Source of the DNA: Candidatus Nanoarchaeia archaeon
GTDB taxonomy: Archaea > Nanobdellota > Nanobdellia > SCGC-AAA011-G17 > JACPNG01
Length of the DNA: 64,000 bases
NCBI GenBank assembly: GCA_028714375.1
Contig: JAQTMK010000002.1
Span: 21,812-85,811 of the forward strand
Direction: 5' to 3'
Numbering within the stretch: the first letter of the stretch is position 1; each line of letters opens with the position of its first letter. A program made the translations under genes and the position numbers. Positions 392 through 45,100 of this stretch are shown one piece after another. The notes below the pieces were generated by a model. That model saw nothing but the letters and a program-made list of their open reading frames with translations, was not told the DNA's origin and did no database searches.

Positions 392-1051
392 CTAAGGTTC
401 ATTATTTATCATCTCCAACAATTTTGGTAAATATCTTACTGATTTTATAATATAATCTGGTTTTTTCTCTTTTAATACTTTTCTAGAAGTATGACCAGTC
501 AAAACAGATATGATTTTGACTTTTGCTCTTTTTGCAGCCATAATATCATAGATAGAATCACCAACAACATAGCTTGCTTTTGTTTTTGTTATTCTTACAG
601 CTTTTTTTATTTCATTAGGGCTTGGTTTGGGAACCTTAACATCATCATCGCCGACAATAGCATCAAATAATTTATAATCAATGCCTGCATTTTTTAACAA
701 ATTAATGATTGTCTTATGCGCACAGTTAGAAGTCACAGCCAGTTTATAATTTTTCTTTAGTTTCTTCAATGCTTTTTTGGCTCCAAATAATCTCCATGTA
801 AAGAATTTATATTTGGTTGTTATCAATTTAAATTGCAGCTTATTGATTTTATAATATATTTCTTCATCTTTGCCCTGTCCAACCATCTCCCTCACCATCT
901 GCTCTTTTGGCATCCCCATCAGACTAAGAAATTTCAAAAAACTAACACTCCTAAAACCATAATGTTTAATCGCTTTATTATAGGTAAAAAAATGGGAAAC
1001 ATCAGAGTTAATCAAAGTATTATCTAAATCAAAGCAAATTAATTTTTTCAT
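392..1051 (-). CDS. HAD-superfamily hydrolase (phosphatase / beta-phosphoglucomutase-like)
   Basis: N-terminal DxD nucleophile motif FDLDNTL, a conserved S/T (VTSN) and the C-terminal GDSxxD (VVGDSIYD) of haloacid dehalogenase-like hydrolases. Confidence 0.8.
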   Translation of the reverse strand: MKKLICFDLDNTLINSDVSHFFTYNKAIKHYGFRSVSFLKFLSLMGMPKEQMVREMVGQGKDEEIYYKINKLQFKLITTKYKFFTWRLFGAKKALKKLKKNYKLAVTSNCAHKTIINLLKNAGIDYKLFDAIVGDDDVKVPKPSPNEIKKAVRITKTKASYVVGDSIYDIMAAKRAKVKIISVLTGHTSRKVLKEKKPDYIIKSVRYLPKLLEMINNEP

Positions 1052-1052
1052 T

Positions 1053-1874
1053 TTAAAATAACTCTGGGTATCTTTTCTTAACCTCTCTTATAAATCCTTT
1101 CACATTATAGGTTCCAAATTCACAGATAACTCCGGTTATTAATTCAGGATTGATAAACTCAAAAGCAGGATTTCTCACATTAATGTAAGGTTTGTCTATA
1201 TCCCAGACTTCCTGTTTGCTTCTTTGTTCTATTTTTTCCTCAAAACCTTTTATTGTATCAACATCAAACTTCCACGAATGTGTGCAGACATAAACAGGAA
1301 TATTACGCTTCTTGGCAATTTCACAAAACATCTCACTTCCGATTTTATTTACAACCTTGCCTTCAGAAGTTATCGCATCAGCGCCTATAAGCATAAGATT
1401 TGCTTTTTTCAAAGCCACTCTTCCTGCAGAATCAACATAATGCTCAACATGAATTTTGTTTTTAGCAAGTTCAATCGCAGTCCTTCTTCCCTGATACCTT
1501 GGTCTTGTTTCTGTGTTATGAACAACAAAGTTTTTCTTTTTTCTTGCTTCTTTCAGAATATTAATCACAGTAGTTGCATGGCAGTGTGTGAATACTATTG
1601 AATTTTTCTGCACTTTGGCAGCACCATATTTTGATATTTTTTCCATATCGGTTTTTATTTTCTTAAAAAATATTTTTGAATTCTTGTTTGGATTTTTCCT
1701 TACAAACTTCAAAGCGTTCCTTAAAAATGGTTCTGTTGGTCTTAATGATATTAATTTCCTATATGAAGAATTACTAAAGCTTAACATGTAAGCTCTTACA
1801 GCCCAGATAGCAACATTTGTTGCACCCTGAATTTTTAAAGATTTGATATCACCTGCAATTTTCCTAAAGTTCAT
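1053..1874 (-). CDS. eIF-2B alpha/beta/delta family protein (ribose-1,5-bisphosphate isomerase / methylthioribose-1-phosphate isomerase-like)
   Basis: Contains GADAITSEGKVVNKIGS and CTHSWKFD, hallmarks of the eIF2B / MtnA / R15P-isomerase family. At 273 aa it is a short member. Confidence 0.7.
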   Translation of the reverse strand: MNFRKIAGDIKSLKIQGATNVAIWAVRAYMLSFSNSSYRKLISLRPTEPFLRNALKFVRKNPNKNSKIFFKKIKTDMEKISKYGAAKVQKNSIVFTHCHATTVINILKEARKKKNFVVHNTETRPRYQGRRTAIELAKNKIHVEHYVDSAGRVALKKANLMLIGADAITSEGKVVNKIGSEMFCEIAKKRNIPVYVCTHSWKFDVDTIKGFEEKIEQRSKQEVWDIDKPYINVRNPAFEFINPELITGVICEFGTYNVKGFIREVKKRYPELF

Positions 1875-4803: not shown

Positions 4804-5823
4804 ATGAAGAAATTAATATTAACAATATTGTTTTTTGTCTTACTGAGTTTTTCAGTAAACGCAGGAGTACTTTCTCTTTACCAATCAGAATGTAACGATA
4901 AAGGAAGTCTTAAATTAACCTTCACTATAACTGAAGCAGATTATAAAGTTGAGGCTAATTCCTTAAATCTAGAAGTTGGTGGAATTAAATACACAGACGC
5001 TTGGTCTAACACAAGGTATCTTAAAAAAGGTGAAGACTCTTCAAAAGAAAATACATTAGCAACTTATAATGAGAGTACGTTTAATGGAAATAAAATATAT
5101 AATGGAAAATTAACTTATATTCAAACCGCATTAACCGGCTCAACCAAAGGAGAACCAGAAACAAAAACCTTGGATTTTAGTGTTAATTGCCCAGGATTAA
5201 AATTTACTTGTGCTCAGCTAGGACTTTCAATTGATTCCTGCATCAATACTCCTAATGGTTTTGAAGCAATCATAACAATGAAAGGTATGGAACAATCTCC
5301 AGGCTACGAACTTGACCCAGTTAAAGCAATAACTTATAGATTTAGTGCAGAATCTGCATACCTACAGGCAACAGGAGCAAACACAAAAGACGGAATGTTA
5401 CCAAAAGATTATACAATTGAAAAAATATCTCAAGATATTTATAAATTATCATTTAACATTGGAGAAAACAAAATAAAAGAAATGCATGTTTATTATGATG
5501 AGTTTGGGATGAAAGCCTCATGTTTGGAAGATGATTATCCTGAAGTAGATTTTTATTCAAGTCAGGATTGTACAGTTGGAGAATCAGTTGAAGACTCCTG
5601 CATTTGTGCAGAAATATACAAGCCTGTCTGTGGAGAAGATGGCAAAACCTATCCAAACGAATGTAACGCAAAATGCGAGAATGTCAAAATTACCCATGAA
5701 GGTGAATGTACTAAAAAAGATTCAGCAAAAGAATTCCCCCTAATGTGGATAATTTTAATAGTTATTATAATCTTAGGGACTGTAATTGCAATATCTTTAA
5801 AAAAGAAAAAATCTAAAAAATAA
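4804..5823 (+). CDS. Secreted, C-terminally anchored protein with a Kazal-type protease-inhibitor-like domain
   Basis: Signal peptide (LILTILFFVLLSFSVNA) and a C-terminal TM plus KKKKSKK tail. Just before the anchor is a Kazal pattern: CICAEIYKPVCGEDGKTYPNECNAKCENVKITHEGEC. Confidence 0.6.
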   Translation: MKKLILTILFFVLLSFSVNAGVLSLYQSECNDKGSLKLTFTITEADYKVEANSLNLEVGGIKYTDAWSNTRYLKKGEDSSKENTLATYNESTFNGNKIYNGKLTYIQTALTGSTKGEPETKTLDFSVNCPGLKFTCAQLGLSIDSCINTPNGFEAIITMKGMEQSPGYELDPVKAITYRFSAESAYLQATGANTKDGMLPKDYTIEKISQDIYKLSFNIGENKIKEMHVYYDEFGMKASCLEDDYPEVDFYSSQDCTVGESVEDSCICAEIYKPVCGEDGKTYPNECNAKCENVKITHEGECTKKDSAKEFPLMWIILIVIIILGTVIAISLKKKKSKK

Positions 5824-5825
5824 TT

Positions 5826-6521
5826 ATGAAACCACGGGTTTTAGTTGGCTGTCCAACCTCTTATCACAAGGAATATTGTTTTGATGAATATCTTAAGGCT
5901 GTTAAAAATCTAACTTATGACAATTATGATATTCTTTTAGTTGAAAACTCAGAAAATGATAACTTTTTCAATAAAATAAAGTCTAAACTTCCTGTAATTA
6001 AAGGGCCTTATGACGAATCTGCAAGAGAAAGAATAATTATGTCTAGAAATTTATTAAAAGAAAAAACAATAGAGAATTATGATTATTTTTTAAGTTTAGA
6101 ACAGGATGTTATTCCTCCTTCAAATATAATTGAGCTTTTTCTTGAACATGATAAAAAAGTGATTTCAGGAATTTATTTTAATAGAGATCTTAAAACAAGG
6201 AATCTAACACCATTAGCTTATATCGAACTTCCAAAAGAAAAAGGAGAAGAGTTACCCTCAATGAGATCATTAACAGATTCAGAAATATTAAGTGATAAAT
6301 TAATAAAAATTGTTTCCTGCGGTCTTGGCTGTGTTTTAATTCATAAAGACATTCTTAAAAAAATCATTTTTAGATATGAAAAAGATAAAGACGCTTTCGA
6401 TGATAGATTTTTTGGAATCGATTTGTATAAATTAAACGAATCAATATATTGCGATACAAGAGTAAAATGCAAACACTTTATTTTAAACCGGCCTTATGAA
6501 TGGAAAGATATTAAGAAATAA
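5826..6521 (+). CDS. Hypothetical protein, possibly a GT-A-fold (glycosyltransferase-like) protein
   Basis: Weak resemblance to nucleotide-diphospho-sugar transferase folds (ILLVENSEND ... EQD ... CGLGCVLIHKDIL). No firm motif. Confidence 0.3.
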   Translation: MKPRVLVGCPTSYHKEYCFDEYLKAVKNLTYDNYDILLVENSENDNFFNKIKSKLPVIKGPYDESARERIIMSRNLLKEKTIENYDYFLSLEQDVIPPSNIIELFLEHDKKVISGIYFNRDLKTRNLTPLAYIELPKEKGEELPSMRSLTDSEILSDKLIKIVSCGLGCVLIHKDILKKIIFRYEKDKDAFDDRFFGIDLYKLNESIYCDTRVKCKHFILNRPYEWKDIKK

Positions 6522-7074
6522 TCAGTTCCTCATCATTACCTAAATCAAACTTTTTGGCTTCTTCCTTATCCATATGAATCTGACTAGAACCATCTTTAAT
6601 AATGCAAAGAGTAGCATCATCGCAGATTAATCCCTTTTTAGGATGCATTAACTTAACTTTCTTCTTGTTGATTAATCCAAGTTTTCTAGCCTCTTCTTCA
6701 ATTAGATGAATGTGTGTTCTTGCTAAAATAACCCCCTCACATAATTCCACTGTACCTTTAGGACCAATAATTGTTAATCCAGGGGTTTCTTTCAAATCAC
6801 CAGAATCTCTCCTGCTAGATTCAATGTCCAGATATTTCTGGTCAGATTCTAAAATCTCAATTTGTGTTCTTAATCTTTCAGGACCTATGATTCTTACATT
6901 CTCAATCTGAAAATCCCCCTTCTTTAAAATAACAGTTTCCTCAGCAGCAAAATTTTCTTTATCCATTAAATACTTTTTAACATTCAAAGAATAACTTTTT
7001 CCAAAGAGTTTATCAATATGCTCTCTTGTCAAATGGGCGTGCCTGTTTGATATTCCTAATTTTACTTTGTTCAT
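6511..7074 (-). CDS. PduL/EutD-like phosphate acyltransferase (phosphotransacylase)
   Basis: Two copies of the RHxH metal-binding repeat typical of PduL (GISNRHAHLTREH and ILARTHIHLIEEE) in a roughly 190-aa protein. Confidence 0.55.
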   Translation of the reverse strand: MNKVKLGISNRHAHLTREHIDKLFGKSYSLNVKKYLMDKENFAAEETVILKKGDFQIENVRIIGPERLRTQIEILESDQKYLDIESSRRDSGDLKETPGLTIIGPKGTVELCEGVILARTHIHLIEEEARKLGLINKKKVKLMHPKKGLICDDATLCIIKDGSSQIHMDKEEAKKFDLGNDEELIIS

Positions 7075-8446: not shown

Positions 8447-9639
8447 TCTTCCACAGCAGATATAGTCACCTTCCCTTCATATTCATCTGGAGCAGTATTT
8501 TCATTCAATTTAACCCTAAAATCAAGATTTGACTCATCATTGGCCTTAAGATTTATTAAAAATAAACTTGGTATCTTTGTTAAGGGATTCCAATTATTGC
8601 TAAAGTAAAACTCTAAACTGTCTGCATTAATATTTTCGTCTCCAGAACTAAAATCTGTTCCAGAAACTTCAATATTAAAATTAACATTACCAAGATTTTT
8701 AATCTTAAGATTTTTGATTTCAGATATCAATCCCTGCTTAACATTTCCAAAATCTAGGTTCTTGGTATCCAAGGAAGAAGCAAGTAAAGGTAAATATTCA
8801 AACTCAAGTTCATTTAAAGAACTTTTATTATTGTCTTCAAGATAAACCTCAATAGTATAATTTCCAGGACTTAAATCATAATACAAATCAAAATATCCTT
8901 CCAATTTATTCCCATTACTTTCCAGTATAATAACTTCATTGTTAAATTCAGCTTTAACATTACTTACCCTGGAAGAACTTGTTGCATTTATATAAATTCT
9001 TTTTTTCTGTCCTGGTAATGGTAATATCTGTATTCCTTCTTCCTCTAAATCATCTGGATGCATTGAAAAAGAAGTTATTTCAAGATTACTCTCTGTAACA
9101 TTAAAAACGACATCAACAGAATCATCATAATAACCTGGACTTCCATCCATCTTTCCTAGTCTCCAATTATTGACATCATCGTTTCCATTCAAATCTATTT
9201 TTTCCATAGAATAACCAGCTTCACTAGGAAAATCTTCAGTATAATTTAAACTTACATTAAAATCACTACATTCAATAAAAATCAAATCTTCTCCGTTATT
9301 CAAAGAAAAACTACCATCTACAGCCTTATAGTTCCCATCAGTTTCATCCCAGATTGTATTATTGTTTCCATAATAACCTTCAAAAGAGGCTCCAGTATCA
9401 CTTGTTAATGTTCTTGCAATCACAATAAACTCAAACGGTTCTATTACTATATCTTCAAAATCACTTCCGTCTATTGTACACTCACTTAAATCAATTTTTG
9501 TATAATTATTGTAAAGTTCAATCCATTCCAAAGCAGTATCACTCATAGCACTTGGATCGTTCATAACTTCAGATATCATCAAATCTGCATAAGCAAAAGG
9601 GATTACCAAAAGTAAAACCAGTATGATTGTTGTTTTCAT
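8443..9639 (-). CDS. Secreted protein with an N-terminal lamin-tail-domain (LTD)-like module
   Basis: Signal peptide, then DLMISEVMNDPSAMSDTALEWIELYNNYTKIDLSECTI, matching the LTD consensus (ISEv..nP.g.d..EWIELyN...dLsg..l). Many N-x-S/T sequons. Confidence 0.55.
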   Translation of the reverse strand: MKTTIILVLLLVIPFAYADLMISEVMNDPSAMSDTALEWIELYNNYTKIDLSECTIDGSDFEDIVIEPFEFIVIARTLTSDTGASFEGYYGNNNTIWDETDGNYKAVDGSFSLNNGEDLIFIECSDFNVSLNYTEDFPSEAGYSMEKIDLNGNDDVNNWRLGKMDGSPGYYDDSVDVVFNVTESNLEITSFSMHPDDLEEEGIQILPLPGQKKRIYINATSSSRVSNVKAEFNNEVIILESNGNKLEGYFDLYYDLSPGNYTIEVYLEDNNKSSLNELEFEYLPLLASSLDTKNLDFGNVKQGLISEIKNLKIKNLGNVNFNIEVSGTDFSSGDENINADSLEFYFSNNWNPLTKIPSLFLINLKANDESNLDFRVKLNENTAPDEYEGKVTISAVEE

Positions 9640-11656: not shown

Positions 11657-13879
11657 TTAATCTCTTCTTTTAATTACAAAGTAAACGATTATAGCTACTA
11701 CAATTACTGCTAAGATAATCCATAGCCATATTTTACTTCCACTCTCAGTTCCTTCAGTTGGTGTTTCTTCTCCACCAATTACTTCTTCACCTTCTTCAGT
11801 TTCAGGAGTTGATGTACTTACACTCTCTGTAGCCAATTTTTCAACTGTGTATTCAACAATTCCGTTGTTAATGCCATCAAGTGTAACTTGTATATCCTTT
11901 GATCCATCTCCGTCTATATCAACCGATTCAGATTCCCCAACAGCTAAAGTCAAAGTTACAGGGTTAGAGCTTACTATAAATGTAACTTTTTTATCTTCAA
12001 CCTGGCTTACTCTGATTTTATGGGTTGATGTTCCACCCAAACTGAATGTTCTTTCACTTCCTTGGCTTGAAGTAAATGTTGCTGAAGTTGCAGTAGTTAA
12101 GTCAGCATCCACAGTTGTTGTGGTTGTTGTAGATCCTCCACCACCGCCTCCGCCTGTTCCAGATGTTGATCCACCATATGAAGCAGTAAATGTACTTGTA
12201 GTAGATCCTTCATTGCCTACAGCATCTGTTGCATAACAAGTAACTGTATATGTTCCAGCAGACTGTGTATCTGTGTTTGTCCAAGTTACAGATTCTTTTT
12301 CGCTCACTGTTGTTGAAGCTCTTATAATTGTGCTTGCGTCTGGCTTAGTTAGTTTCCATGAATAACTCGATACTCCAGATAGGTCATCACTAGCTTCACA
12401 GGTAAATGTAACTGAACCAGATACGTCAATTGAAGTATCACTTGGATCTGTAATTGTTGCGGCCGGAGCAGTTCCATCTACTGTAAATGTATCCTTAAAG
12501 ATAGTGGTATATCCTTCTATCCCTGCACATCCTGCACTTTGGTTTAGTGTAATTACAAAGTAAGATACATTTGATGTATTCCAAACCCCCGATGGGAACG
12601 TAATATTATAAGCCAAAGTTACATGCTGGGTTGCACCACCAGTACTATTAACAGTCTTAAGAGTCTCTTTAGCTTCTACGTAATTTAAAGATCTTAAATC
12701 CGTTCCGTTGTTGGTGTAATATGTATATATTGTATCATCCTTAAATGGTCCAGTTGCTTCTAAATCAATAATAATACTTGTGTAGGGTTTAAAATACTTA
12801 ACCGGATTTGTACTAAGATAATCTACCGCATTTGTCTCATCAGTAATATTCAACAACGTAATTGTTACAACATCTGAAGAGTTTATAAGTACATATCCTG
12901 GAACCGTTGCAGCCATTGCAGATTCATTAAAGTTTGCAGTATTTCCCACTGAATCATTTGCAAATATGGAGAATGATAAATTATTTCCTTCACTCAACGC
13001 AGATTGTGGAATTGTTCCAGTGTACATTGAAGGCTCTGTCTTAGTAAAGAACACGATGGTTCCCTGATTATTAGCAGTTTCTGCAATTCCGGTAGTGTTA
13101 TAACTCATCCAAACCGCAGAGACATCGTTCATCGCATCAGTCATTGTCAACAATAATCTAATATCTGAACTCACTCCACTTAAAACCAAACTTCCATTAA
13201 AGTGATTGGCTGTACTATTCACCCATGTCATATTTCCATCTGTAATGTTTAAACTTCCAGTTAAAACAGTTGGATTTATACCATCGATTCCAATACTAAT
13301 ACTTGTTGTGTTTGTGATTCCAGCAGCAACAGCAGTACTAGTCAATACCACAATATTGGAAGCTGACTCCGCACTTGCAGTGGCAGTCATATTAAGATAA
13401 AGTATTATGGTTGTATTAGTTGAACCCAATGCTGCACTAGCACTATTATTACTACAAATAATTGTTGAAGTAAAATTAGAACAACTCCAGTCTAACTGAT
13501 TACCTGAACTATCATAAGTAACATTACTCAAACTGTTTGTTGAGTTAGGGAAAGTTGCCCAATCTAATCCTGCAACTCCTTCTATAACTAATTCATCAGT
13601 TGCCGCTGCTGAATTTGTAAATCTCAAAAGTGAGTAATTTCCTTCATCCAAGGTAATGTTAAAGTTAGTTATCAAACTTCCAGTACCATCATGGACGATT
13701 GTAATTTTAAATAATTCTGTCTCACCACCCTTTGTCATGTTATTTACTCCATCAGATCCCAGTGTTGCAGTTACAGCAGTATTCGTTGTATCCAAATCTG
13801 CAAGAACAAAAGAACCAAAGAGTACTAACAAAACAAAAAAAACACTAGAAAGAATAAACACATTTCTCTTTTTATCCAT
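11657..13879 (-). CDS. Large secreted surface (S-layer-like) glycoprotein candidate, very rich in N-glycosylation sequons, with a C-terminal TM anchor
   Basis: Signal peptide (VFILSSVFFVLLVLFGSFVLA), dozens of N-x-S/T sequons, a PKD/Ig-like segment (TFTCEASDDLSGVSSYSWKL), a Gly/Thr low-complexity linker (SGTGGGGGGGSTTTTTT), and a C-terminal TM (IWLWIILAVIVVAIIVYFVI) followed by KRRD. Confidence 0.6.
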   Translation of the reverse strand: MDKKRNVFILSSVFFVLLVLFGSFVLADLDTTNTAVTATLGSDGVNNMTKGGETELFKITIVHDGTGSLITNFNITLDEGNYSLLRFTNSAAATDELVIEGVAGLDWATFPNSTNSLSNVTYDSSGNQLDWSCSNFTSTIICSNNSASAALGSTNTTIILYLNMTATASAESASNIVVLTSTAVAAGITNTTSISIGIDGINPTVLTGSLNITDGNMTWVNSTANHFNGSLVLSGVSSDIRLLLTMTDAMNDVSAVWMSYNTTGIAETANNQGTIVFFTKTEPSMYTGTIPQSALSEGNNLSFSIFANDSVGNTANFNESAMAATVPGYVLINSSDVVTITLLNITDETNAVDYLSTNPVKYFKPYTSIIIDLEATGPFKDDTIYTYYTNNGTDLRSLNYVEAKETLKTVNSTGGATQHVTLAYNITFPSGVWNTSNVSYFVITLNQSAGCAGIEGYTTIFKDTFTVDGTAPAATITDPSDTSIDVSGSVTFTCEASDDLSGVSSYSWKLTKPDASTIIRASTTVSEKESVTWTNTDTQSAGTYTVTCYATDAVGNEGSTTSTFTASYGGSTSGTGGGGGGGSTTTTTTVDADLTTATSATFTSSQGSERTFSLGGTSTHKIRVSQVEDKKVTFIVSSNPVTLTLAVGESESVDIDGDGSKDIQVTLDGINNGIVEYTVEKLATESVSTSTPETEEGEEVIGGEETPTEGTESGSKIWLWIILAVIVVAIIVYFVIKRRD

Positions 13880-13990
13880 TCTCTAACCTCCTTTTTTTGT
13901 GAATTCACACTATTTTTAATATATATTTTGATTATATACTTAATAAATATAACATAAGAACTTATATATAAATCTTACAGTTTCAAAAAA

Positions 13991-15265
13991 TCATTCTCCT
14001 TCGAATGAAATCATAGAATAAATATCATATTTTCTTAATTTATCTCTTCCTTTCAAATCAGGAAGTTCGATTACAAAAGCAATCTCAAAAACTTTTGCAT
14101 TTCTTCTTTCAATTAAGTCTGCAGCAGCTTTTGCAGTTCCACCAGTAGCAAGTAAATCATCAATAAGCAAAACATTTTGGTTTTCTTTTATAGAATCCAC
14201 ATGAATCTCAAGTTTATCAGTTCCATATTCCAATGAATACTCAACACTGTCAACATTAAATGGTAACTTCCCAGGTTTTCTTATTGGAACAAAACCGACT
14301 CCTAATAAGTTAGCTAGAGCACCGCCAATAATGAATCCTCTGCTTTCAATCCCAGCGATAACATCAATCTTTGAATCCCTATATCTTTCATAAAGTTTTT
14401 CCAGAACATAACTGAATGCATATTTATCATTCAGTAAAGTTGTAATATCCCTAAACATTATCCCTTTTTTAGGAAAATCAGGTATTGTTCTTACTTTTGA
14501 TTTCAGATCAATCTCTTTTTTGGCCAGTTTAGGTATAATATTTATCAACAAACTTTTCATCTTCTCAGCATTTTGCTCAAAGATTTTATATACCATTTCC
14601 CATGAAACACTTTCTTCTCCTTCTTTCCAGCAATCATAATCAGTACTCATCGCAACAGCAGAATATCTTATACCAAGTTCATTGGCTAAGATAGCCTCAG
14701 GAGCAATAGACATATTGATAACGTCAGCTCCCCACATCCTAAACATTTTACTTTCTGCTTTAGTGGAAAATCTTGGACCTTCGATTGTAATCACAGTCCC
14801 TTTTTCATGAACTTTTAATTTCAATTCTTTAGCAGTTTCAATTAAAACTTCTCTTAAATTTTTATCAAAAGGTTCTGCTGTTGAAACATGTACAGGCTTA
14901 TCGTCAAAGTGCTCAAAAAAACTTACTTTCCTGTGCCTTGTAAAATCTATAAACTGATCTAGAATAACAAAATCACCTCTCCCAATCTCCTCTCTCAAAG
15001 ATCCCACAGCAGTTGTAGCAATTATCAAATCACATCCAATTTGTTTTAAAGCATAAACATTAGCTCTATAATTAACCTGGCTTGGAGGAATATTATGTTT
15101 TCTTCCATGTCTGGCAAGTATAGCTACCTCTACTCCTTTAATTTTTCCTTCAACTATTCTATCAGAAGGTTTTCCGTATGGAGTTTCTACTTCATATTCA
15201 AATTTATCTTCTAGAATATTAGGATTATCCAGTCCAGATCCTCCAATGATTCCAATTTTAGTCAT
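13991..15265 (-). CDS. Fusion protein: 5'-methylthioadenosine / purine nucleoside phosphorylase (N-terminal) fused to adenine phosphoribosyltransferase (C-terminal)
   Basis: N-terminal [12 protein letters not shown]...[30 protein letters not shown] is the MTAP/PNP-family signature. The C-terminal part has the PRTase PRPP-binding loop [13 protein letters not shown] and APRT-like flanks. Confidence 0.8.
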
Positions 15266-15348
15266 TTTTACTTTATTAATGGGTGAGACAAACTTTAAAT
15301 ATATTATTCTACAAAAAAATAGATAAAAGAGAGGTTCTATTCAAGAAT

Positions 15349-17025
15349 ATGAAAAAAACAACAAAAATAGTGATTTTGGTATTTCTGATAGCTATAATAT
15401 TAAAATTTGCTTTAAGTTTTTTAGTAAACAATCCAATAGCGTTCAGTGATGATTATACCTATATAAAATTAGCAAGAAATATTTTTTATTTTAACACATT
15501 CTCGGTAAACAGCCAAAACCCATTGTACTATCCTCCGTTATATCCACTTATTTTATCTTTTACTTATTTGGTTAAAGATATGAATTTAATATTCGTTCTT
15601 ATGAAACTAATAAATTCAATAATTTCATCCCTGATTATCTTTCCGATTTTCCTTCTAGCCAGAGAATTTCTGGATGAGAGAGAAACAATTATCTTAACGA
15701 TAATAACTGCCCTGCTTCCTTACAATATCTTATTCTCAAATGTAATAATGGCAGAGAATTTATTTTATCCTCTGGTTTTATTTTCAATATATTTTATTTA
15801 CAAGTCCTTCACAACAAAGAAAATTACCTATGACATTCTTGCCGGAATTTTTATTTCACTAAGTTATTTAACAAAAACTCTCGGTCTCGGATTAATATTT
15901 GTGGTGTTAATCCCATTCTTGTATAAATTAATTAAAGGAAATTATTATGAAATAAAGAAAAAAATAGTTATGGCAGTATTCTTTATTTTAGTTTCATTAC
16001 CTTGGTTTATCAGAAATTTCGAGTTGTTTGGTTTTAGTTTAGGTCTATTTGCAGGAGGCTATCCAACAACAAAAATAACAACTGCGATTTCTTCAACGAA
16101 CTATTTAACATTAATTGGATGGTTTTTTGTTTATCTTGGCTATTTAATAATTTCTTCAGCAATAATCTTTTTTGTATTTAATTTATCTTTCATAAAAAAT
16201 GCATCTGAAAAAAGAGAAAAAATTTTAAGTTTAATAGTCATATCCTCAATCTTTAGTTTTTTAATAATAGCTTCGATGCATCACATCAATGCTATTGCAG
16301 ATTCTCTTACAAATCTATTTTTCCTAAGAGGAAGACCTCTTGGAAGATATATTGAATTTTTAACTCCTTTAATTATTATCGGTGCGTTTATCGGATTTAA
16401 AAAAAGAAATCTTAAGTTTGAAAAAACAGCCCTAATCATACTAACTGCCTTAGCAGCGGTTGTAATCTCACAACTGATATATTATCAATTGTTCCCGGTG
16501 AATACAATTAGTCTATCATTGGTGGGGGGGATAACTTATATAATTGGAACAAATTTATCCTCATTTTTGTTGCCACTACTCTTAATTTTTTTAGCTGTGT
16601 TTGTATTTATAATTTCAAAGATAAAAATAAACTATCTTGTTTATGTTTTCATAACTTTAATGATGTTAACCAGCTTAATAGGTTACTCAGCTATGCTAAA
16701 ACAATCTGGAGACTGGTCAAAAAATCCTCAGATTCATCTGGGAGAATTCCTGAATGATAATAAAATCTCAAATATCTTGATAGATAGGAATAATTGTATA
16801 GAAAAGCTTACAAAAACAACAACTAATGAAGGAATTTGTGATTATGAACATGACATAACTATTATAGGTTTAAAAACAAATGACAATATTTTGATAGATT
16901 TTCCGTCAGAACAGAACCTAAAAAATAATGATTTCCTAATAAGCAAGGAACAGTATAGTTATAAAATAGTAAAAGAAGAAAACAAAATCTATATATATTC
17001 CCTAAAAGACCCAGAATTAAAATGA
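15349..17025 (+). CDS. GT-C-fold membrane glycosyltransferase (ArnT/PMT-like, Dol-P-sugar dependent)
   Basis: Polytopic membrane protein with an acidic first-loop motif (FSDDYTYIKLARN) as in ArnT/PMT/GT83-like enzymes. The ORF-track start at 15283 would leave only 17 bp to the divergent upstream gene, so the Met at 15349 (MKKTTKIVILVFL) is more plausible. Confidence 0.5.
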   Translation: MKKTTKIVILVFLIAIILKFALSFLVNNPIAFSDDYTYIKLARNIFYFNTFSVNSQNPLYYPPLYPLILSFTYLVKDMNLIFVLMKLINSIISSLIIFPIFLLAREFLDERETIILTIITALLPYNILFSNVIMAENLFYPLVLFSIYFIYKSFTTKKITYDILAGIFISLSYLTKTLGLGLIFVVLIPFLYKLIKGNYYEIKKKIVMAVFFILVSLPWFIRNFELFGFSLGLFAGGYPTTKITTAISSTNYLTLIGWFFVYLGYLIISSAIIFFVFNLSFIKNASEKREKILSLIVISSIFSFLIIASMHHINAIADSLTNLFFLRGRPLGRYIEFLTPLIIIGAFIGFKKRNLKFEKTALIILTALAAVVISQLIYYQLFPVNTISLSLVGGITYIIGTNLSSFLLPLLLIFLAVFVFIISKIKINYLVYVFITLMMLTSLIGYSAMLKQSGDWSKNPQIHLGEFLNDNKISNILIDRNNCIEKLTKTTTNEGICDYEHDITIIGLKTNDNILIDFPSEQNLKNNDFLISKEQYSYKIVKEENKIYIYSLKDPELK

Positions 17026-17898: not shown

Positions 17899-19320
17899 TT
17901 ACTTCTTCATAATTCTTTTTATAATGGACATCGGACTTACATATCCTCCCATTAACTGGTGGAATCCTTTAACCCTTTTCTTGAATTCATAAAAAGAATT
18001 TATTTTAGATAGTTGATGGATAATATACCCAGGTCTGAAATAAAAACTCTTCAAAAAATATTTTTGCATTTTTCTTACTTGCTCTGGTGTAAAATCTTTA
18101 GTTTTTATAACGCCCAATTCCATATAATCCATCTTTTCCCAATCCAGTTCTTCCATCTCACCAAATTTTTTGACCAGTTCAACAACCTCGGTCCCTGGGA
18201 AAGGAGTCATAACACTAACTTGAATGCAATCTGGTTTAATTTCCTTGGCAAATTTCAGACTCTGTTTCATATCTCTTATTGTCTCCCCTGGAGTCCCAAC
18301 AATAAATGTAGCTTGGGTAAATATCCCAACCTTGTTAGCTAATCTAAATGCTCTTCTCACCTGATCTAAAGTAATTCCTTTCTTGAGATAGTTATCTAAG
18401 ACCGCCTGTACTCCAGACTCAACACCAAATGAAATGAATTCGCATCCATGTTCTTTCATTTTTATCAGCAAATCTTCATCAACTAAATTAACTCTTGTAT
18501 TGCATCCCCATTTAATTTTTATCCCCCTCTGTTTCAAAATTTCAAATATTTCAATAGCCCATTTCTTGTTCATAGTAAAAGAATCATCATTAAACCATAT
18601 ACCTTTAATGTAATAGGTTTTAACCAAATGTTCGATTTCATCAGCATAGTTTTTAGCACTTCGGAAAAATACTTTTCCATTACAATTTAAGTTAGTTGCA
18701 CAGAAAGTACAATGATAAGGACATCCTCTCGTACCAATTACTGTAGTAGATGGGCTTGGAACAGTCCAACTGGACCTCCCAACACTATATTCTAAGTATT
18801 TATCCATAGGCAATAAATCTCTTGCAGGAAAAGGCAGCTCATCTAAGTTCTCAATAAAGGTTTCAGCACCAGTAAATTTTATTTTTTCATTTTCTTTGTA
18901 ATAAATCCCCTTTACACTCTTAATATTTTTTCCGCTCTTTAATGCATCTAGCAGATTAACTATTATCTTTTCCCCCTGCCCCTTAATAACTACATCAAAA
19001 CCATAAGAGTTAAGCATATCTTCTGGTAAAGTAGAAGGATGGACTCCCCCCGCAACAAAAATAGCATTAGAAACATTAATTCTTATATCACTAACTAGAG
19101 ATTTCATATCTTTAAGCATGTCTGTCATAAAGCCAATTCCAATCACGTCAGGTTTAATTTCTCTAACCTGTTTGATTAAATCCTCGCGACTAGTATTAAA
19201 TGTGCAATCTATTATACTAACCTCCAATCCATTTTTTCTCATATAAGAAGCCAAATAAGCAATTCCCAACGGTGGGCTGCTATAAGGAAAAAATCTTGGA
19301 TATATCAATAAAGTTTTCAT
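17899..19320 (-). CDS. B12-binding-domain radical SAM enzyme (class B radical SAM; probable methyltransferase/tailoring enzyme)
   Basis: N-terminal cobalamin-binding-like Rossmann domain (LLIYPRF...PLGIAYLASYMRKNGLEVSIID) followed by the CxxxCxxC cluster GTRGCPYHCTFCATN. Confidence 0.85.
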   Translation of the reverse strand: MKTLLIYPRFFPYSSPPLGIAYLASYMRKNGLEVSIIDCTFNTSREDLIKQVREIKPDVIGIGFMTDMLKDMKSLVSDIRINVSNAIFVAGGVHPSTLPEDMLNSYGFDVVIKGQGEKIIVNLLDALKSGKNIKSVKGIYYKENEKIKFTGAETFIENLDELPFPARDLLPMDKYLEYSVGRSSWTVPSPSTTVIGTRGCPYHCTFCATNLNCNGKVFFRSAKNYADEIEHLVKTYYIKGIWFNDDSFTMNKKWAIEIFEILKQRGIKIKWGCNTRVNLVDEDLLIKMKEHGCEFISFGVESGVQAVLDNYLKKGITLDQVRRAFRLANKVGIFTQATFIVGTPGETIRDMKQSLKFAKEIKPDCIQVSVMTPFPGTEVVELVKKFGEMEELDWEKMDYMELGVIKTKDFTPEQVRKMQKYFLKSFYFRPGYIIHQLSKINSFYEFKKRVKGFHQLMGGYVSPMSIIKRIMKK

Positions 19321-21804: not shown

Positions 21805-22678
21805 CTTTCCTTAAAATATAAACGAAAAAAATTATAAAGGTTGCGAAAAAGTAATAAAACACTCTTAATGTCAGGTAAACTGCTAAAACCAGCTCCTTGC
21901 CTGCTCCGTAGGGGGCATACATTAAGATAGCTATCCCTTCTCTTAAGCCTAACCCATTAATTGTTATGGGTATTGAAGACAATAATAATATTGCCATATT
22001 CAATAAAACAACTGTAATTAAACTAATCTCAAATCCCATCGCCTTAAAGGCAAACCAAAAAGCTATTCCGGTAACCCCCCATTTAAGAACTGTAAGTATA
22101 AGATTAAGGATAATTTTCATATAATTTTCTAAGATATAAAGTCTAGCTTCAGCAATATATCCATAAATCCTCTTAAAGAATATTTTAGCAATAAAATAAA
22201 AGATTAAACCAAGAATAATAACCCCCACTATCAAATAAAGAATATATTTCATTGGGATAAGTTTAGGGAGAATAAAAAAAGAAAATAGAACTAAAACAAT
22301 AAGAGTTATCGTTTTATCCAGGATCATATAAAACACAGATTTATGATATTCAATGTTTTCTTTTTTTAGAAAAAAGGCTATTGAAAACTCTCCAAGTCTT
22401 CCAGGAAGAAAACAACCATAAGCCCAGCTCAATGAATAATATCCCAAAAATTTCTTTAGATCAAATTCTTTTGGTAAAAAAATATATACTGAATAAGCAG
22501 AAAGTAACAAAGCGATTAACAATAAAACAAGAACAACCAAGATATAGACTAAATTAATATTCTCGAATATAAAAAAAAACTCTTTAAAATCCACTTTCCA
22601 TAAAATAAATAAAATAATAGCTGCAGAAACAAAAATCCTAAGCAGATTCCTAAACACTCTTTTTTTATCCATTTTCAA
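21788..22678 (-). CDS. Flippase-like / LPG-synthase-TM (UPF0104) family integral membrane protein
   Basis: Eight predicted TM segments and the N-terminal RNLLRIFVSAAIILFILWKVDFKEF typical of this family, which is often paired with GT2 or lipid-headgroup enzymes. Confidence 0.5.
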   Translation of the reverse strand: MKMDKKRVFRNLLRIFVSAAIILFILWKVDFKEFFFIFENINLVYILVVLVLLLIALLLSAYSVYIFLPKEFDLKKFLGYYSLSWAYGCFLPGRLGEFSIAFFLKKENIEYHKSVFYMILDKTITLIVLVLFSFFILPKLIPMKYILYLIVGVIILGLIFYFIAKIFFKRIYGYIAEARLYILENYMKIILNLILTVLKWGVTGIAFWFAFKAMGFEISLITVVLLNMAILLLSSIPITINGLGLREGIAILMYAPYGAGKELVLAVYLTLRVFYYFFATFIIFFVYILRKDVRFK

Positions 22679-24138
22679 CCTTTATAAAACATGATTCTCG
22701 AGATAATTGAACTAACTCCTCTAATGATCCTTCTTATATCTTTTAAGTTTCTTATAGACCTCATATTCTGGAAGATAACTCTGGGAGAAGTGTAATATCT
22801 CAGGTTCATCTTTCTTATAATCCCATTTAGTTCTTTCTTAGAAAGATATTTGGTTTTCATAACAGCGCCATGACAACCATCAAAATCTTCCCAAGAATTA
22901 TATTCAAATAAATTCATAGATCTAGCCTCTTCATACAATTTTGTTCCAGGGAATGCCGCAGCCAATGTAAATTGCACATAATCTGCATGAACTTGTTTTG
23001 CAAATTTAATAGTTTCACTGATTGTTTCTTTTGACTCTTCTGGTAATCCAATAACAAAACTTCCAGAAGACATGATCCCTGCTTTTTTAGTTAATTTAAC
23101 CGCATTAATTATTTGTTCTTTAGTTATCCCTTTAGAGGAGGTTTTTAATATTTTATCGCTGCCAGATTCAAAACCATAAAAAATATCTTTGCATCCAGCT
23201 TTTTTCATTAATCCCAATGTTTCTTCGTCAACATTATTAACTCTAGCCATGCACCTCCATATCAGATTGATTTTTCTTTTTATTAATTCATTGCATAACT
23301 CCCTTACTCTTTCCTTATCTATTAGGAAAGAATCATCATCAAAATAAATTTCATCTATATTGTAATTTCTTTTCAAAAACTCTATTTCTTCTGCTACATT
23401 CTTTGCAGACCTTGCCCTAAATTTATGACCATATAAAGTATCAGGCCATAAACAAAAAGTACACCGATAAGGACACCCCCTAGTAGAAATTAATAACGCA
23501 GCTTTTTTACCAGTATAAAATGCTTGTTGATATTTTTCAATTCTAAAGTCTTCTCTGTCAGCAAAAGGCAACTCATCCAAATTATCAATCAATTCTCTTG
23601 GATCATTAACAATTACCTTATCTTTTTCCCTATAAGTAATCCCCCTAATCTCTTTAACACCTTTTTTATTAGAATAATTGTTACACAATTCCAATAAAGT
23701 ACAATCAAGTTCTCCTTTTATTATAAGATCTACAAATTTGTAATTCTCAATAATTTCTTTGTCAAAATAACTTGCATGAGGCCCCCACAAAACAACTAAA
23801 CAGTTAACTTCTTTTTTGATTTGAAAAGCTGTTTCCAAATCATACATTATTGATGGTGTTGAAACTTCTAGTAAGATAATTTCAGGATTAAATTTTTTGA
23901 CATAATCAACAAAAGCAGGGATCCCAAACTCTTTTTCCACAGCATCAATACCTTTTGCATCAAAACCATTTTTCTTAAGAACTGCCAAAGCAGTCGCTAA
24001 ATAAACTGGGAAAGTTAAAACTTTATCTCCCCTCCTGTGTGGCCATCTAATGTTGGTCCTCGTTCCATATCCTTCTCCAGGCCAAGGAGGATTAGCAATT
24101 AAAACTCTCATATTAATCAATATTTCTCCAAACAACAA
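22675..24138 (-). CDS. B12-binding-domain radical SAM enzyme
   Basis: N-terminal B12-binding-like domain plus STRGCPYRCTFCLWP (CxxxCxxC). Paralogous to the radical SAM enzymes at 17899, 33634, 35165 and 45097. Confidence 0.85.
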   Translation of the reverse strand: MLFGEILINMRVLIANPPWPGEGYGTRTNIRWPHRRGDKVLTFPVYLATALAVLKKNGFDAKGIDAVEKEFGIPAFVDYVKKFNPEIILLEVSTPSIMYDLETAFQIKKEVNCLVVLWGPHASYFDKEIIENYKFVDLIIKGELDCTLLELCNNYSNKKGVKEIRGITYREKDKVIVNDPRELIDNLDELPFADREDFRIEKYQQAFYTGKKAALLISTRGCPYRCTFCLWPDTLYGHKFRARSAKNVAEEIEFLKRNYNIDEIYFDDDSFLIDKERVRELCNELIKRKINLIWRCMARVNNVDEETLGLMKKAGCKDIFYGFESGSDKILKTSSKGITKEQIINAVKLTKKAGIMSSGSFVIGLPEESKETISETIKFAKQVHADYVQFTLAAAFPGTKLYEEARSMNLFEYNSWEDFDGCHGAVMKTKYLSKKELNGIIRKMNLRYYTSPRVIFQNMRSIRNLKDIRRIIRGVSSIISRIMFYKG

Positions 24139-24171: not shown

Positions 24172-25305
24172 ATGAAACAAAATCAATTTTCTAGGACTGA
24201 ACAATTAGGATATTTCATACTCTCAAGGTTACCATTCAAGAAAAATATACTAAAGATTTTAAATAAAAAAAGGTTGGATAATATTAAAAAATTGAAAACT
24301 CCACTAAATCTTGTTTATTACATTACCAATAATTGTAACCTAAGATGTAAACATTGTTTCTACTGGAAGAACCTTAACAAAAATAATAAGAATGAATTAA
24401 CCCAGGAAGAACTGATTAAAATAGCAAAGAGTCTGAAACATCCATTAAATGTTTTATCAATAACTGGAGGAGAACCCTTTCTGAGAAAAGACATAGTTGA
24501 GGTTTGTGATCTTTTTTACAAACATAATAACACAAAGAGGATTAACATAACAACAAATGGCTTTGACTCAGAATTTATTTATGAGTCCGTAAAAAGAATC
24601 CTAAAGGATAATCCAAGGAAAAGACTTACGATCTTTATATCTCTTGATGGTATGGAATCCACCAATAATAAGATAAGAAGTAATGACAAGGCGTTTGCAA
24701 AGGCAACAGAAACAATAAAAAAATTAAAGCAAATTAAAAATTCGAACCTCTCATTACTGATTGCAACAACGATCCATAAAGAAAACTACCGAGAACTTCC
24801 TGAATTAATTAATTATTTAAAACTACTCAAGGTTGTACATAAGTTCAATCTATTAAGGGATAGTTCTATGGTTTTAGGTGTTGATAAAGACCTTACCTAT
24901 AATTTTAACCCACAATACTTCCATCCTCTTGAAAAAGAAGAGTTGTTCCATGTACACTCCTTAATAAAAGAAAACATAACAAATTTGCCATCCAAAGTAG
25001 AAGCACTAAAAATAAAAAATTCAATAGAAATTATCTTAAATAAAATTTCACCAGTAAAATGCCTCGCAAGATACACGGATGCAGTTCTGTTCCCAGAAGG
25101 AGATATCTCAATCTGTGAACCAACAAAAACTTTTACAAATATAAGAGATTATAACTATGATTTTTATAGGTTATGGAATTCTGAAGAAACTAAAAAAATA
25201 AAAGAAAAATTAAGGAATTGCAGTTGTATACAACCTGAAAACTTATTAAATTCAATGAAATACGATACAAATACCCTTACAAATGTATTTTCTCGCAAAT
25301 ACTGA
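24172..25305 (+). CDS. Radical SAM enzyme with a Cys-containing C-terminal (twitch/SPASM-like) extension
   Basis: YYITNNCNLRCKHCFY (CxxxCxxC), GGEPFL glycine-rich SAM motif, and C-terminal cysteines (CLARY...ICEPT...CSCIQ). Confidence 0.75.
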   Translation: MKQNQFSRTEQLGYFILSRLPFKKNILKILNKKRLDNIKKLKTPLNLVYYITNNCNLRCKHCFYWKNLNKNNKNELTQEELIKIAKSLKHPLNVLSITGGEPFLRKDIVEVCDLFYKHNNTKRINITTNGFDSEFIYESVKRILKDNPRKRLTIFISLDGMESTNNKIRSNDKAFAKATETIKKLKQIKNSNLSLLIATTIHKENYRELPELINYLKLLKVVHKFNLLRDSSMVLGVDKDLTYNFNPQYFHPLEKEELFHVHSLIKENITNLPSKVEALKIKNSIEIILNKISPVKCLARYTDAVLFPEGDISICEPTKTFTNIRDYNYDFYRLWNSEETKKIKEKLRNCSCIQPENLLNSMKYDTNTLTNVFSRKY

Positions 25306-37740: not shown

Positions 37741-38445
37741 ACTAATATCTTTGCTCTCACTAAAATGAAATGCTTTTTTTCTTAACAAACAATTATGACA
37801 TTTCCCACAATGGATTGGGAGATTACCTCTAAAACCGCCACCATTATAACAACTGTAAGTATATTGCCATGGAACTTTTAATTTACTTCCAATTTCAACA
37901 ACCTCTGGTTTATCTTTGTCAATAAAAGGAGCTAAAAATTTATATCCTCCATGAAATGTAGCTTCCTCACTTAGTAAATTTAATTTCTTTAAAAATTCAG
38001 GAGTTGTATCTTTCAGTTGAACCTGTCCTTCGTCTTTTATTCCAAGATAAACATCCCATCTTTCCTTTGTTGAGATAAACAAAGATTCAGCATGGCTTAA
38101 TCCAACCAAACCAAAAATAGCATTCCTGCATGGAACCCAGTATAATATCTCATGTTCCTGTTCTTTTTTAATATCTTTTAAATCTTCATCCCTGACATCC
38201 GGTAGTTTATCTTTTCTGTTAATCAAAGATGTGCTAATTTTTCCAAGCCATTCCAGGTTAATTTCTTTGAATTCAGCATTTAATTCATAAGCTATTTTTT
38301 TAACACAAAATCTTTCTTCTTCAAGTGGTTTTTGACCATAATTAAAGAATAATAATATCATTTTTTTAGGATTCATAGATTTAACTTTATATGCAACAGC
38401 CACACTATCAAGTCCTCCCGAACACAAAATAATTGCATTATTCAT
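37726..38445 (-). CDS. queC: QueC-like PP-loop ATPase (7-cyano-7-deazaguanine synthase family)
   Basis: PP-loop ILCSGGLDS near the N-terminus and a C-terminal zinc-binding cluster CYNGGGFRGNLPIHCGKCHNCLLRKKAF, as in QueC. Confidence 0.7.
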   Translation of the reverse strand: MNNAIILCSGGLDSVAVAYKVKSMNPKKMILLFFNYGQKPLEEERFCVKKIAYELNAEFKEINLEWLGKISTSLINRKDKLPDVRDEDLKDIKKEQEHEILYWVPCRNAIFGLVGLSHAESLFISTKERWDVYLGIKDEGQVQLKDTTPEFLKKLNLLSEEATFHGGYKFLAPFIDKDKPEVVEIGSKLKVPWQYTYSCYNGGGFRGNLPIHCGKCHNCLLRKKAFHFSESKDISLYLS

Positions 38446-44425: not shown

Positions 44426-45100
44426 ATGAAAACTTCAGTAATATTCTTAACTTTAAACGAAGAAGCTTCTTTGGAAGAAATGTACAACCAAATGCCAAAC
44501 AAACAAGATATTTACGAATTTCTATTAGTAGATGGCGGTTCTAAAGATAAAACTCTAGAAATAGCTAAAAGATTAGGAATGAAAATAGTAAACCAAAAAG
44601 AAACCGGAAGAGGAAGAGGTTTCTATGAAGGAATGAAAGCAGCAAAAGGGGATATTCTAATTTTTTTCAGTCCAGATGGAAACGAAGACCCAAGAGAAAT
44701 ACCTTTAATGATTAAAAAAATAGAAGAAGGTTATGATATGGTTATTGCTTCAAGATTCATGAAACAATCAGCAAGTCATGATGTTACATTCATAAGAAGA
44801 ATAGGAAACAGAAGTTATGCAATACTAACAAACTTAGTTTTTGGAACAAGATTAAAAGATGCGGTAAATGGTTTCAGGGCAATAAGAAAAGATATAATGG
44901 AAAGATTAAATCTGGAAGCAAAAAGATTTGACATAGAGATGGAAATGACAACAAAAGTCTTAAAACTAAAAGGAAAAATAATAGAAGTTCCAACAACAGA
45001 ACCAAAAAGAATTGAAGGTAGGTCAAGATTAAGAACCTTTTACGATGGTTATTTAATATATAAAAGATTTTTAAAATCATTAAAATACAAAGAAATATGA
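44426..45100 (+). CDS. GT2 glycosyltransferase, dolichyl-phosphate sugar synthase-like
   Basis: VIFLTLNEEASL ... LLVDGGSKDKTLEIAKRLG ... SPDGNEDP (DxD). Confidence 0.8.
   Translation: MKTSVIFLTLNEEASLEEMYNQMPNKQDIYEFLLVDGGSKDKTLEIAKRLGMKIVNQKETGRGRGFYEGMKAAKGDILIFFSPDGNEDPREIPLMIKKIEEGYDMVIASRFMKQSASHDVTFIRRIGNRSYAILTNLVFGTRLKDAVNGFRAIRKDIMERLNLEAKRFDIEMEMTTKVLKLKGKIIEVPTTEPKRIEGRSRLRTFYDGYLIYKRFLKSLKYKEI

Follow-up and report, generated by a model that had tools for sequence, protein, structure and literature searches.

A 64,000-nucleotide stretch of a contig from a Candidatus Nanoarchaeia archaeon (the window, by which we mean the whole stretch analyzed) contains a single open reading frame (ORF) that unites an S-methyl-5′-thioadenosine phosphorylase (MTAP) domain with an adenine phosphoribosyltransferase (APRT) domain. 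Profile searches, structure comparisons and the recovery of relatives with the same architecture confirm, at the level of sequence, a genuine natural fusion of an MTAP-family phosphorylase and APRT. We propose, with a probability of roughly 0.8, that the product is a bifunctional purine-salvage enzyme, which would release adenine and then form adenosine monophosphate (AMP), and that its gene arose from an mtnP-apt pair through loss of a stop codon. Both halves belong, as ordinary members, to well-known families, and the fused architecture is already present in the databases; in the open-access literature we found no paper describing a natural MTAP-APRT fusion. The features of the gene are as follows, with phosphoribosyl pyrophosphate abbreviated as PRPP:

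13991..15265, minus strand: mtnP-apt fusion gene, one ATG-to-TGA ORF of 424 codons with the TGA stop at 13991-13993
14513..15265, minus strand: MTAP domain (NP-I fold), residues 1-251, from TIGR01694, the alignment to human MTAP (1cb0) and Foldseek
13994..14512, minus strand: APRT domain (type I phosphoribosyltransferase, PRTase), residues 252-424, from TIGR01090, NF002636 and alignments to bacterial APRTs
14507..14521, minus strand: connector KKEID, residues 249-253, from the secondary structure of the AlphaFold2 model
14633..14641, minus strand: codons of Asp209-Tyr210-Asp211 (human Asp220 and Asp222, the adenine-recognizing pair of MTAP), from the alignment to human MTAP
14222..14239, minus strand: flexible catalytic loop of APRT, YSLEYG, residues 343-348, aligned to solved APRTs
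14135..14173, minus strand: PRPP-binding loop, 13 residues, 365-377, read from the sequence
15266..15349, no strand: divergent intergenic region of about 85 nucleotides, A/T-rich, the presumed promoter, read from the sequence
13984..13990, minus strand: run of six T right after the stop (TGA TTTTTTG), a candidate archaeal oligo-T terminator

Domain identities, active sites and the junction

The sequence-only reading of this DNA had described one 424-residue ORF combining an MTAP/purine nucleoside phosphorylase (PNP)-family domain with a type I PRTase domain, a description that the family models bear out. Pfam places PNP_UDP_1 at residues 3-244 (E 4e-52) and Pribosyltran at residues 289-409 (E 5e-17), and each half passes the curated cut-off of its NCBIfam equivalog model: TIGR01694 for MTAP with 316.8 bits against 274.85 (residues 3-245; positions 1-239 of a 240-position profile), and TIGR01090 for apt with 225.7 bits against 185.85 (residues 254-420; positions 1-168 of 169). 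The C-terminal half additionally scores 234.8 bits with NF002636 (cut-off 125), while models of other PRTases match it weakly (XPRT 42-53 bits, archaeal HPT 48 bits), in keeping with its assignment to APRT rather than to the orotate or xanthine PRTases. None of the PNP models in NCBIfam reached its cut-off with the fusion protein. Among solved structures, the best match of residues 2-251 is human MTAP (1cb0, ~57% identity) and those of residues 252-424 are the bacterial APRTs 5yw2, 4lza and 9vlf (~55% identity); no PDB chain spanned both halves by sequence or, among the 50 best Foldseek matches, by fold. Foldseek matched the MTAP half to human MTAP with E 3e-35, a TM-score of 0.89 normalized to the target and a root-mean-square deviation of 1.1-2.5 Å. 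An AlphaFold2 model built from 90 homologs has a mean predicted local distance difference test (pLDDT) value of 90.5 and a predicted TM-score (pTM) of 0.64, at which the relative orientation of the domains and the interface between them are not confidently predicted. The GC content is uniform (0.34 and 0.32 in the two halves, 0.31 in the window), and there is no second copy of MTAP or APRT within the 64 kb.

The protein is 100% identical to GenBank MDD5331697.1 (P0001 in our protein set), the public name of which, 'S-methyl-5'-thioadenosine phosphorylase [Candidatus Nanoarchaeia archaeon]', covers the MTAP half alone. A look-up of contigs coding for the window protein itself gave no entry. A search covering 5.8 billion proteins, with clusters formed at 90% identity, recovered at least 120 clusters with the same MTAP-APRT architecture (422-449 residues, 60-80% identical over the full length, both Pfam domains present), drawn from NCBI, JGI, ENA and Logan assemblies; the search for relatives with the same fusion, which had been suggested as a check, was thus borne out. 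The named members are Woesearchaeota, Nanoarchaeota or Nanoarchaeia, and their JGI and NCBI names likewise mention only the MTAP half. The closest of them, P0002, is 80% identical and has the same type of junction.

Compared with human MTAP (1CB0), the N-terminal half shows ~57% identity over 250 residues, the same fold and the same phosphate-, ribose- and adenine-binding residues, including Asp220 and Asp222. At the phosphate site, human Thr18, Arg60, His61, Thr93, Ala94 and Thr197 correspond to S10, R52, H53, T85, A86 and S186, with two conservative Thr-to-Ser replacements, and the base-site residues Asp220, Asp222, Phe177, Ser178 and Met196 are kept as D209, D211, F166, S167 and M185. All of these positions, along with H57 and H126, are invariant or nearly so across 120 fused homologs (Asp209 and Asp211 in 120 of 120). 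The C-terminal half aligns end to end with bacterial APRTs (2DY0, 4MB6, 5YW2, 4LZA, 9VLF) and keeps their hood, Glu-Tyr loop and PRPP loop; it differs from them in having no start codon of its own, the place of Met1 being taken by Ile252 joined to the last MTAP helix. Its motifs, namely the adenine hood FRDIT (MFRDIT at residues 270-275), ESRGF (residues 307-311), RKxGKLP, YxLEYG and DDLxATGGT, are again invariant or nearly so in the 120 homologs: in the flexible loop Y343, E346, Y347 and G348 are kept in every one, and in the PRPP loop D369, D370, A373 and T374 are invariant, with G375, G376 and T377 kept in at least 116. We take the counterparts in human APRT to be Glu104-Tyr105 for the flexible loop and Arg67 for the pyrophosphate-binding Arg, and the hood pattern to be FxDI[TS]. 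The halves have also diverged at similar rates (mean pairwise values of 0.33 for MTAP and 0.345 for APRT), and their distances correlate (r = 0.67). Together, the conserved residues, the equal divergence and the correlated distances indicate that both domains are under purifying selection, and the active sites read as intact in both.

The MTAP domain had been called complete, which holds against the family model; however, the ~20-residue C-terminal tail of human MTAP is absent. The alignment ends at human residue 262, and the fusion, which carries APRT at its C-terminus, is without the helix that in the human enzyme puts Leu279 into the 5′-alkylthio pocket of the neighboring subunit (PMC5147791). 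Standalone and split MTAP relatives are equally tail-less, ending at ~245-250 residues; the missing tail is therefore native to this MTAP clade, and the idea that the APRT domain replaces an active-site-closing tail was rejected. The fused family further has Ser10 (as Ser12 of Schistosoma mansoni MTAP, SmMTAP) in place of human Thr18 and Trp222 in place of human Val233, along with Thr85 as in the human enzyme. All three residues recur in the standalone and split MTAPs of the clade, the two replacements being features of the whole prokaryotic clade, and mutants of SmMTAP show that specificity is not set by such positions, for which reasons we also rejected a fusion-specific substrate shift through Trp222 or Ser10. 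Comparison with the standalone and split MTAPs of the clade found no fusion-specific active-site change.

A fused homolog from Pacearchaeota (P0271, GenBank MCK9568014.1, of the P0128 cluster) has a degenerate APRT half, in which a 22-residue deletion takes out the flexible catalytic loop and the PRPP loop reads VLLIDE--AFSENS. Its MTAP phosphate site is altered too, with TSDVNSL instead of TTAVGSL. The APRT half of this protein appears to be a pseudo-enzyme domain kept in the fusion.

The junction lies where the sequence-only reading had expected it (residues 251/252; nucleotides 14507-14521): the MTAP alignment ends at residue 251, while the first residue, Met1, of the standalone APRT 9vlf_B falls on residue 252. 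In the AlphaFold2 model a helix at 222-248, the last of MTAP, is followed by coil at 249-253 and by a helix at 254-257, the first of APRT. The codons here are AAA GAG ATT GAT (Glu251-Ile252-Asp253), of which GAG and ATT occupy the places of the mtnP stop and the apt start codons in split relatives; no in-frame Met follows before residue 270. Upstream of the gene, a candidate TATA-like element, A/T-rich (CTTTAAATATATTA, at 15293-15306), lies ~28-41 nucleotides 5′ of the ATG in this genome of 31% GC, and the fusion gene looks monocistronic in the window.

Split gene pairs and the origin of the fusion

A tblastn scan of one genome per species (GTDB) yielded 75 loci. Matches over residues 1-424 at first suggested a fusion frequent among Desulfobacterota and Bathyarchaeia, a reading that was rejected when inspection of the ORFs showed two adjacent genes; L002 is the only true fusion among the 75. 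Instead, 31 species-level genomes of Desulfobacterota, Bathyarchaeia and Woesearchaeota carry separate, co-directional mtnP and apt genes, in that order, with spacers of 0-113 nucleotides. These pairs (L001, L003-L009, L012 and others, of which L001 and L008 are from Woesearchaeota) are orthologous to the two halves (47-64% identity) and share their order and strand, but code for two polypeptides; in the bacterial loci the spacer often holds a purine-rich motif of the GGAGG/GAGGA type (read by eye). In one Woesearchaeota metagenome-assembled genome (L001, JAFGCE010000038.1, positions 9588-9596) the two genes are in frame and directly abut, as AAA TAA/ATG CCT. Since the window has GAG-ATT at the place of this TAA/ATG, and since apt in the split relatives begins with M-D/N-L-K, the fusion would most simply have originated from an abutting mtnP-apt pair that lost its stop codon.

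In a neighbor-joining tree of the concatenated halves (78 taxa, 100 bootstrap replicates), the split pairs occupy deep branches under an arbitrary rooting on Bathyarchaeia, and the main DPANN fused group joins a 22-member clade of split Desulfobacterota pairs with a bootstrap of 99. A tree of the MTAP domain alone left the branching unsettled, with apparent heavy interleaving, and the concatenated tree was used instead. In the latter, L001 is sister to the fused P0021 (bootstrap 60), and its split genes may be either a retained pre-fusion state or the product of secondary fission through a nonsense mutation in the linker.

Further joined forms were recovered beyond the main family. P0122 is an independent fusion with a 46-residue linker that falls outside the main fused clade, and P0124 (519 residues) and P0125 (452 residues) have the reverse order, APRT followed by MTAP, with a linker of 79 residues in one reverse-order form. 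In the MTAP-APRT order the linker spans ~0 to 46 residues and its sequence is not conserved; within the main family the distance from the DYD motif to the APRT hood varies between 50 and 73 residues. By these sequence comparisons, MTAP and APRT have been joined at least three times independently, fusion and fission seem easy, and such repeated joining is classic Rosetta-stone evidence for functional coupling. Other MTAP fusions were also seen, namely a PfkB kinase-MTAP protein (P0138, 598 residues) and an MTAP-UDP-glucose dehydrogenase protein (P0133, 684 residues); like P0124 and P0125, these are representatives of 50%-identity clusters from Logan and other metagenome contigs.

Proposed function and its rivals

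In the proposed mechanism the MTAP domain would use phosphate to cleave 6-aminopurine nucleosides with a modified 5′ position into adenine and the matching (5-substituted) ribose-1-phosphate (R1P). Its predicted substrates are 5′-methylthioadenosine (MTA), very probably 5′-deoxyadenosine and possibly adenosine, the first two of which are by-products of S-adenosylmethionine (SAM) use. The APRT domain would then convert the released adenine and PRPP to AMP and pyrophosphate. Joining the two would ensure 1:1 expression and co-localization, such that adenine would be cleared at the pace of its formation and its ring kept, which would be useful if, as is probable, the organism is unable to make purines. 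Both enzymes and their metabolic coupling are textbook matter and the biochemistry itself is unsurprising; in human polyamine metabolism, for instance, the main job of APRT is to clear the adenine made by MTAP.

Several known systems bear a likeness to parts of this scheme. MtnP cleaves MTA as well as 5′-deoxyadenosine, which radical SAM enzymes release as a by-product and by which they are inhibited (PMC8102628). Seven radical SAM genes are present in the window, and on both counts the emphasis that the sequence-only reading had placed on 5′-deoxyadenosine is reasonable. The salvage of both nucleosides by MtnP in methionine salvage and the dihydroxyacetone phosphate shunt (PMC8102628, PMC6079011) starts with the same phosphorolysis; the fusion, by contrast, centers on the adenine half of the molecule, and no gene for MtnA, an aldolase or MtnB lies beside it in the window or in those relatives whose neighborhoods were inspected. 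S. mansoni lacks both methionine salvage and de novo purine synthesis, and in it an MTAP-family enzyme acts as an adenosine phosphorylase and supplies adenine to APRT (PMC5147791); there, however, MTAP and APRT are two proteins of a eukaryote, and SmMTAP retains the C-terminal helix (Gln289). The HGPRT/adenylate kinase of Zobellia galactanivorans likewise combines a type I PRTase with an enzyme that catalyzes a neighboring step of salvage; its partner and step are different, and it has been biochemically characterized (PMC7326950).

The gene neighborhoods of the relatives fit a recovery of the adenine ring from SAM by-products. At L080 (4604-8335) an adenosylhomocysteinase gene, ahcY (637.7 bits against a cut-off of 497.6), is followed by the gene of a PfkB-family kinase of unassigned specificity and then by the fused gene, with overlapping gene ends that suggest an operon; the fused protein of this locus (P0066) is present on 25 contigs. 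In four Woesearchaeota loci (L076, L078, L079, L081) genes for an Elp3-like radical SAM protein and a UbiE-type methyltransferase flank the fusion, and in seven split loci of Desulfobacterota a gene for an MtaD/DadD-like deaminase lies nearby. A PfkB kinase gene downstream of apt in five Desulfobacterota loci was considered as a further pathway partner and rejected; its product, at 342.5 bits (cut-off 345), is of the RfaE heptose-kinase type and probably has no connection with the pathway.

Within ~2 kb on each side of the fusion, the four Woesearchaeota loci, which belong to one clade, share one order: the divergent Elp3-like gene, a small ORF, the fusion, the UbiE-type methyltransferase, threonyl-tRNA synthetase and a class Ib tRNA synthetase. 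The Elp3-like products have Radical_SAM and Radical_SAM_C domains, with a faint GNAT match in two of the four. The small ORF (84-146 residues) overlaps the start of the fusion, has no Pfam match and is absent from the window.

Several points weigh against the bifunctional-salvage proposal or its proposed history. The preference among MTA, 5′-deoxyadenosine and adenosine cannot be read off the sequence, because the kinetics of SmMTAP mutants show that a few active-site positions do not set adenosine use (PMC5147791). A fused homolog with decayed motifs, P0271, suggests that the APRT domain is not active in every member. The association with radical SAM and SAM-related genes, though suggestive, is in part due to common descent inside a single clade, and the fusion gene of the window itself appears to stand alone in its transcript. 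The number and direction of the fusion and fission events are uncertain, because in the concatenated tree the main fused group has weak bootstrap support for monophyly (35), with the split L001 falling within it. Finally, the usual state of MTAP is a trimer and that of APRT a dimer, and a single chain may or may not form both assemblies.

The strongest rival, which we regard as unlikely but still a serious contender, holds that the phosphorylase half is mainly a general adenosine (6-aminopurine nucleoside) phosphorylase of nucleoside catabolism for which the name MTAP is nominal: R1P would pass through an R1P kinase and a ribose-1,5-bisphosphate (R15P) isomerase to RuBisCO or to a phosphatase/aldolase branch, with APRT recycling the adenine. 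This overlaps the bifunctional-salvage proposal and does not exclude it. Precedents exist in the MTAP-family adenosine phosphorylases of S. mansoni, where adenosine is used as efficiently as MTA (PMC5147791), in the dedicated adenosine phosphorylase TK1895 of the pentose bisphosphate pathway of T. kodakarensis (PMC9700705) and in the placement by Wrighton et al. of APRT upstream of the AMP/RuBisCO pathway in bacteria belonging to the candidate phyla radiation (PMC5113843). Ser10, invariant in the fused family, matches SmMTAP Ser12 and not human Thr18, but is also common in ordinary standalone MTAPs of the clade, and it is the MTAP equivalog cut-off, not that of any PNP model, that the protein passes. 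The PfkB kinases that adjoin the fusion in L080 and are fused to MTAP in P0138 are weakly R1P-kinase-like, yet fall far below every NCBIfam cut-off, and the 64-kb window has no gene for RuBisCO, AMP phosphorylase or PfkB. It does have an R15P-isomerase-like ORF abutting a hydrolase gene:

1053-1874, minus strand: eIF2B-family ORF, R15P-isomerase-like, 273 residues (solved enzymes have 324-338)
392-1051, minus strand: HAD-family hydrolase, directly abutting the eIF2B-family ORF

The eIF2B-family ORF scores 157.5 bits with the R15P isomerase model TIGR00511 (cut-off 314.1) and 108.9 bits with the MtnA model TIGR00512 (cut-off 279), and against solved structures it scores 113-118 bits with the R15P isomerases of Pyrococcus and Thermococcus (5yfj, 3a11) compared to 70 and 54 bits with MtnA (1t9k and 2yrf, respectively). 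It falls below every NCBIfam cut-off, and with R15P isomerase ahead in both models and structures an assignment to MtnA finds no support; the protein, which retains the active-site Cys and Asp that the two enzymes share, resembles R15P isomerase and is not demonstrably MtnA. Its pairing with the HAD hydrolase recalls that of haloarchaea, in which an R15P isomerase is paired with a HAD-family ribulose-1,5-bisphosphate phosphatase in a non-carboxylating pentose bisphosphate pathway (PMC9700705). However, 12 kb separate the isomerase-like ORF from the fusion, and the neighborhoods of five other fused homologs do not contain it. This counts against the adenosine-catabolism alternative, and the compact MTA recycling route that the sequence-only reading had drawn between this ORF and the fusion likewise finds no support.

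Channeling had also been suggested; that the fusion exists for this, with adenine handed directly from one active site to the other within a defined quaternary arrangement, seems to us improbable. The two reactions are consecutive, the connector of the window protein has only ~5 residues, and fusion has occurred at least three times independently; moreover, given the established oligomeric states, a C3 trimer and a C2 dimer could close as a D3 hexamer. Against this, linkers vary from ~0 to 46 residues (79 in the reverse-order form) with unconserved sequence, both domain orders exist, many lineages hold the genes separate, no active-site change is specific to the fusion, and the AlphaFold2 model, at a pLDDT of 90, has a pTM of 0.64 and no confident inter-domain interface. 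That linkers vary and reverse-order forms exist speaks against a fixed, conserved inter-domain geometry, and together with the split pairs and the pTM these features fit co-expression and co-localization better than a fixed channel. A more specific version, in which a connector of at most five residues builds a D3 hexamer or larger assembly and adenine from 5′-deoxyadenosine or MTA passes straight to APRT, is one we would hold quite improbable; if true, a purine-auxotrophic DPANN archaeon would have in such a particle one polypeptide for the detoxification of SAM by-products and the regeneration of AMP alike.

We consider it very unlikely that the protein works as an MTAP only, with an APRT half that has a structural or regulatory role, binding PRPP or adenine without catalysis. 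PRTase domains have been recruited as regulators elsewhere, as in PurR and PyrR, and in the Pacearchaeota homolog the APRT half is clearly degenerate; across the window protein and its 120 relatives, however, all catalytic and binding motifs are intact and as conserved as those of the MTAP half, and the apt equivalog cut-off is passed. Least of all, with next to no chance in its favor, can the ORF be an assembly or sequencing artefact joining two neighboring genes: close relatives do have abutting mtnP and apt, sometimes in frame with one stop, where a single base error could mimic a fusion, but a frameshift or assembly error, against which the sequence-only reading had wished its natural fusion to be checked, is excluded by the at least 120 independent fused homologs at 60-80% identity from different projects and assemblers, P0002 has a matching junction, and the former start is Ile (ATT) with the next in-frame Met at residue 270, unlike what a misread stop codon alone would leave.

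Other genes of the window and the meaning of the fusion

The gene immediately downstream of the fusion codes for a 740-residue protein with an N-terminal signal-like segment, many N-x-S/T sequons, a tract rich in Gly and Thr (GGSTSGTGGGGGGGSTTTTTT) and, at the C-terminus, a transmembrane anchor. A weak Ig-like match is its sole domain match, and these features suggest that it is probably a glycosylated, S-layer-like surface protein. More broadly, the window is a glycosylation island with glycosyltransferases, a flippase and AglB (52702-55323). Its seven radical SAM genes (17899-46416), five of them with B12-binding domains, are accompanied by at least four SAM methyltransferases; for an archaeon with a small genome, this is an unusually dense set of class B radical SAM enzymes for modifying glycans or lipids. 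The remaining features of the window are:

11657-13879, minus strand: the 740-residue protein downstream of the fusion gene
17899-19320: radical SAM gene
22675-24138: radical SAM gene
24172-25305: radical SAM gene
33634-35163: radical SAM gene
35165-36595: radical SAM gene
43263-44324: radical SAM gene with a SPASM domain
45097-46416: radical SAM gene
1958-2413: TspO/MBR protein
4804-5823: Kazal-type protease-inhibitor domain protein
6511-7074: PTAC-family phosphate propanoyltransferase-like protein
28483-30246: carbamoyltransferase (NodU/CmcH type)
37726-38445: QueC

The fusion is thus real, conserved and sensible, and its surprise value is modest. A single protein with a route from MTA or 5′-deoxyadenosine and PRPP to AMP could serve as a biocatalyst or assay reagent. 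Its main uses, though, lie in providing a natural series of gene-fusion intermediates and in correcting the annotation and metabolic reconstruction of DPANN archaea. As to the former, the family displays the stages of fusion together, from separate genes through an abutting stop and start to linkers of 0-46 residues, a reversed order and one decayed half. As to the latter, hundreds of database entries, MDD5331697.1 included, are named 'MTA phosphorylase' only; hence APRT is probably under-called in automated reconstructions of Woesearchaeota and other DPANN metabolism, in which the case for host dependence turns largely on the capacity for purine salvage.

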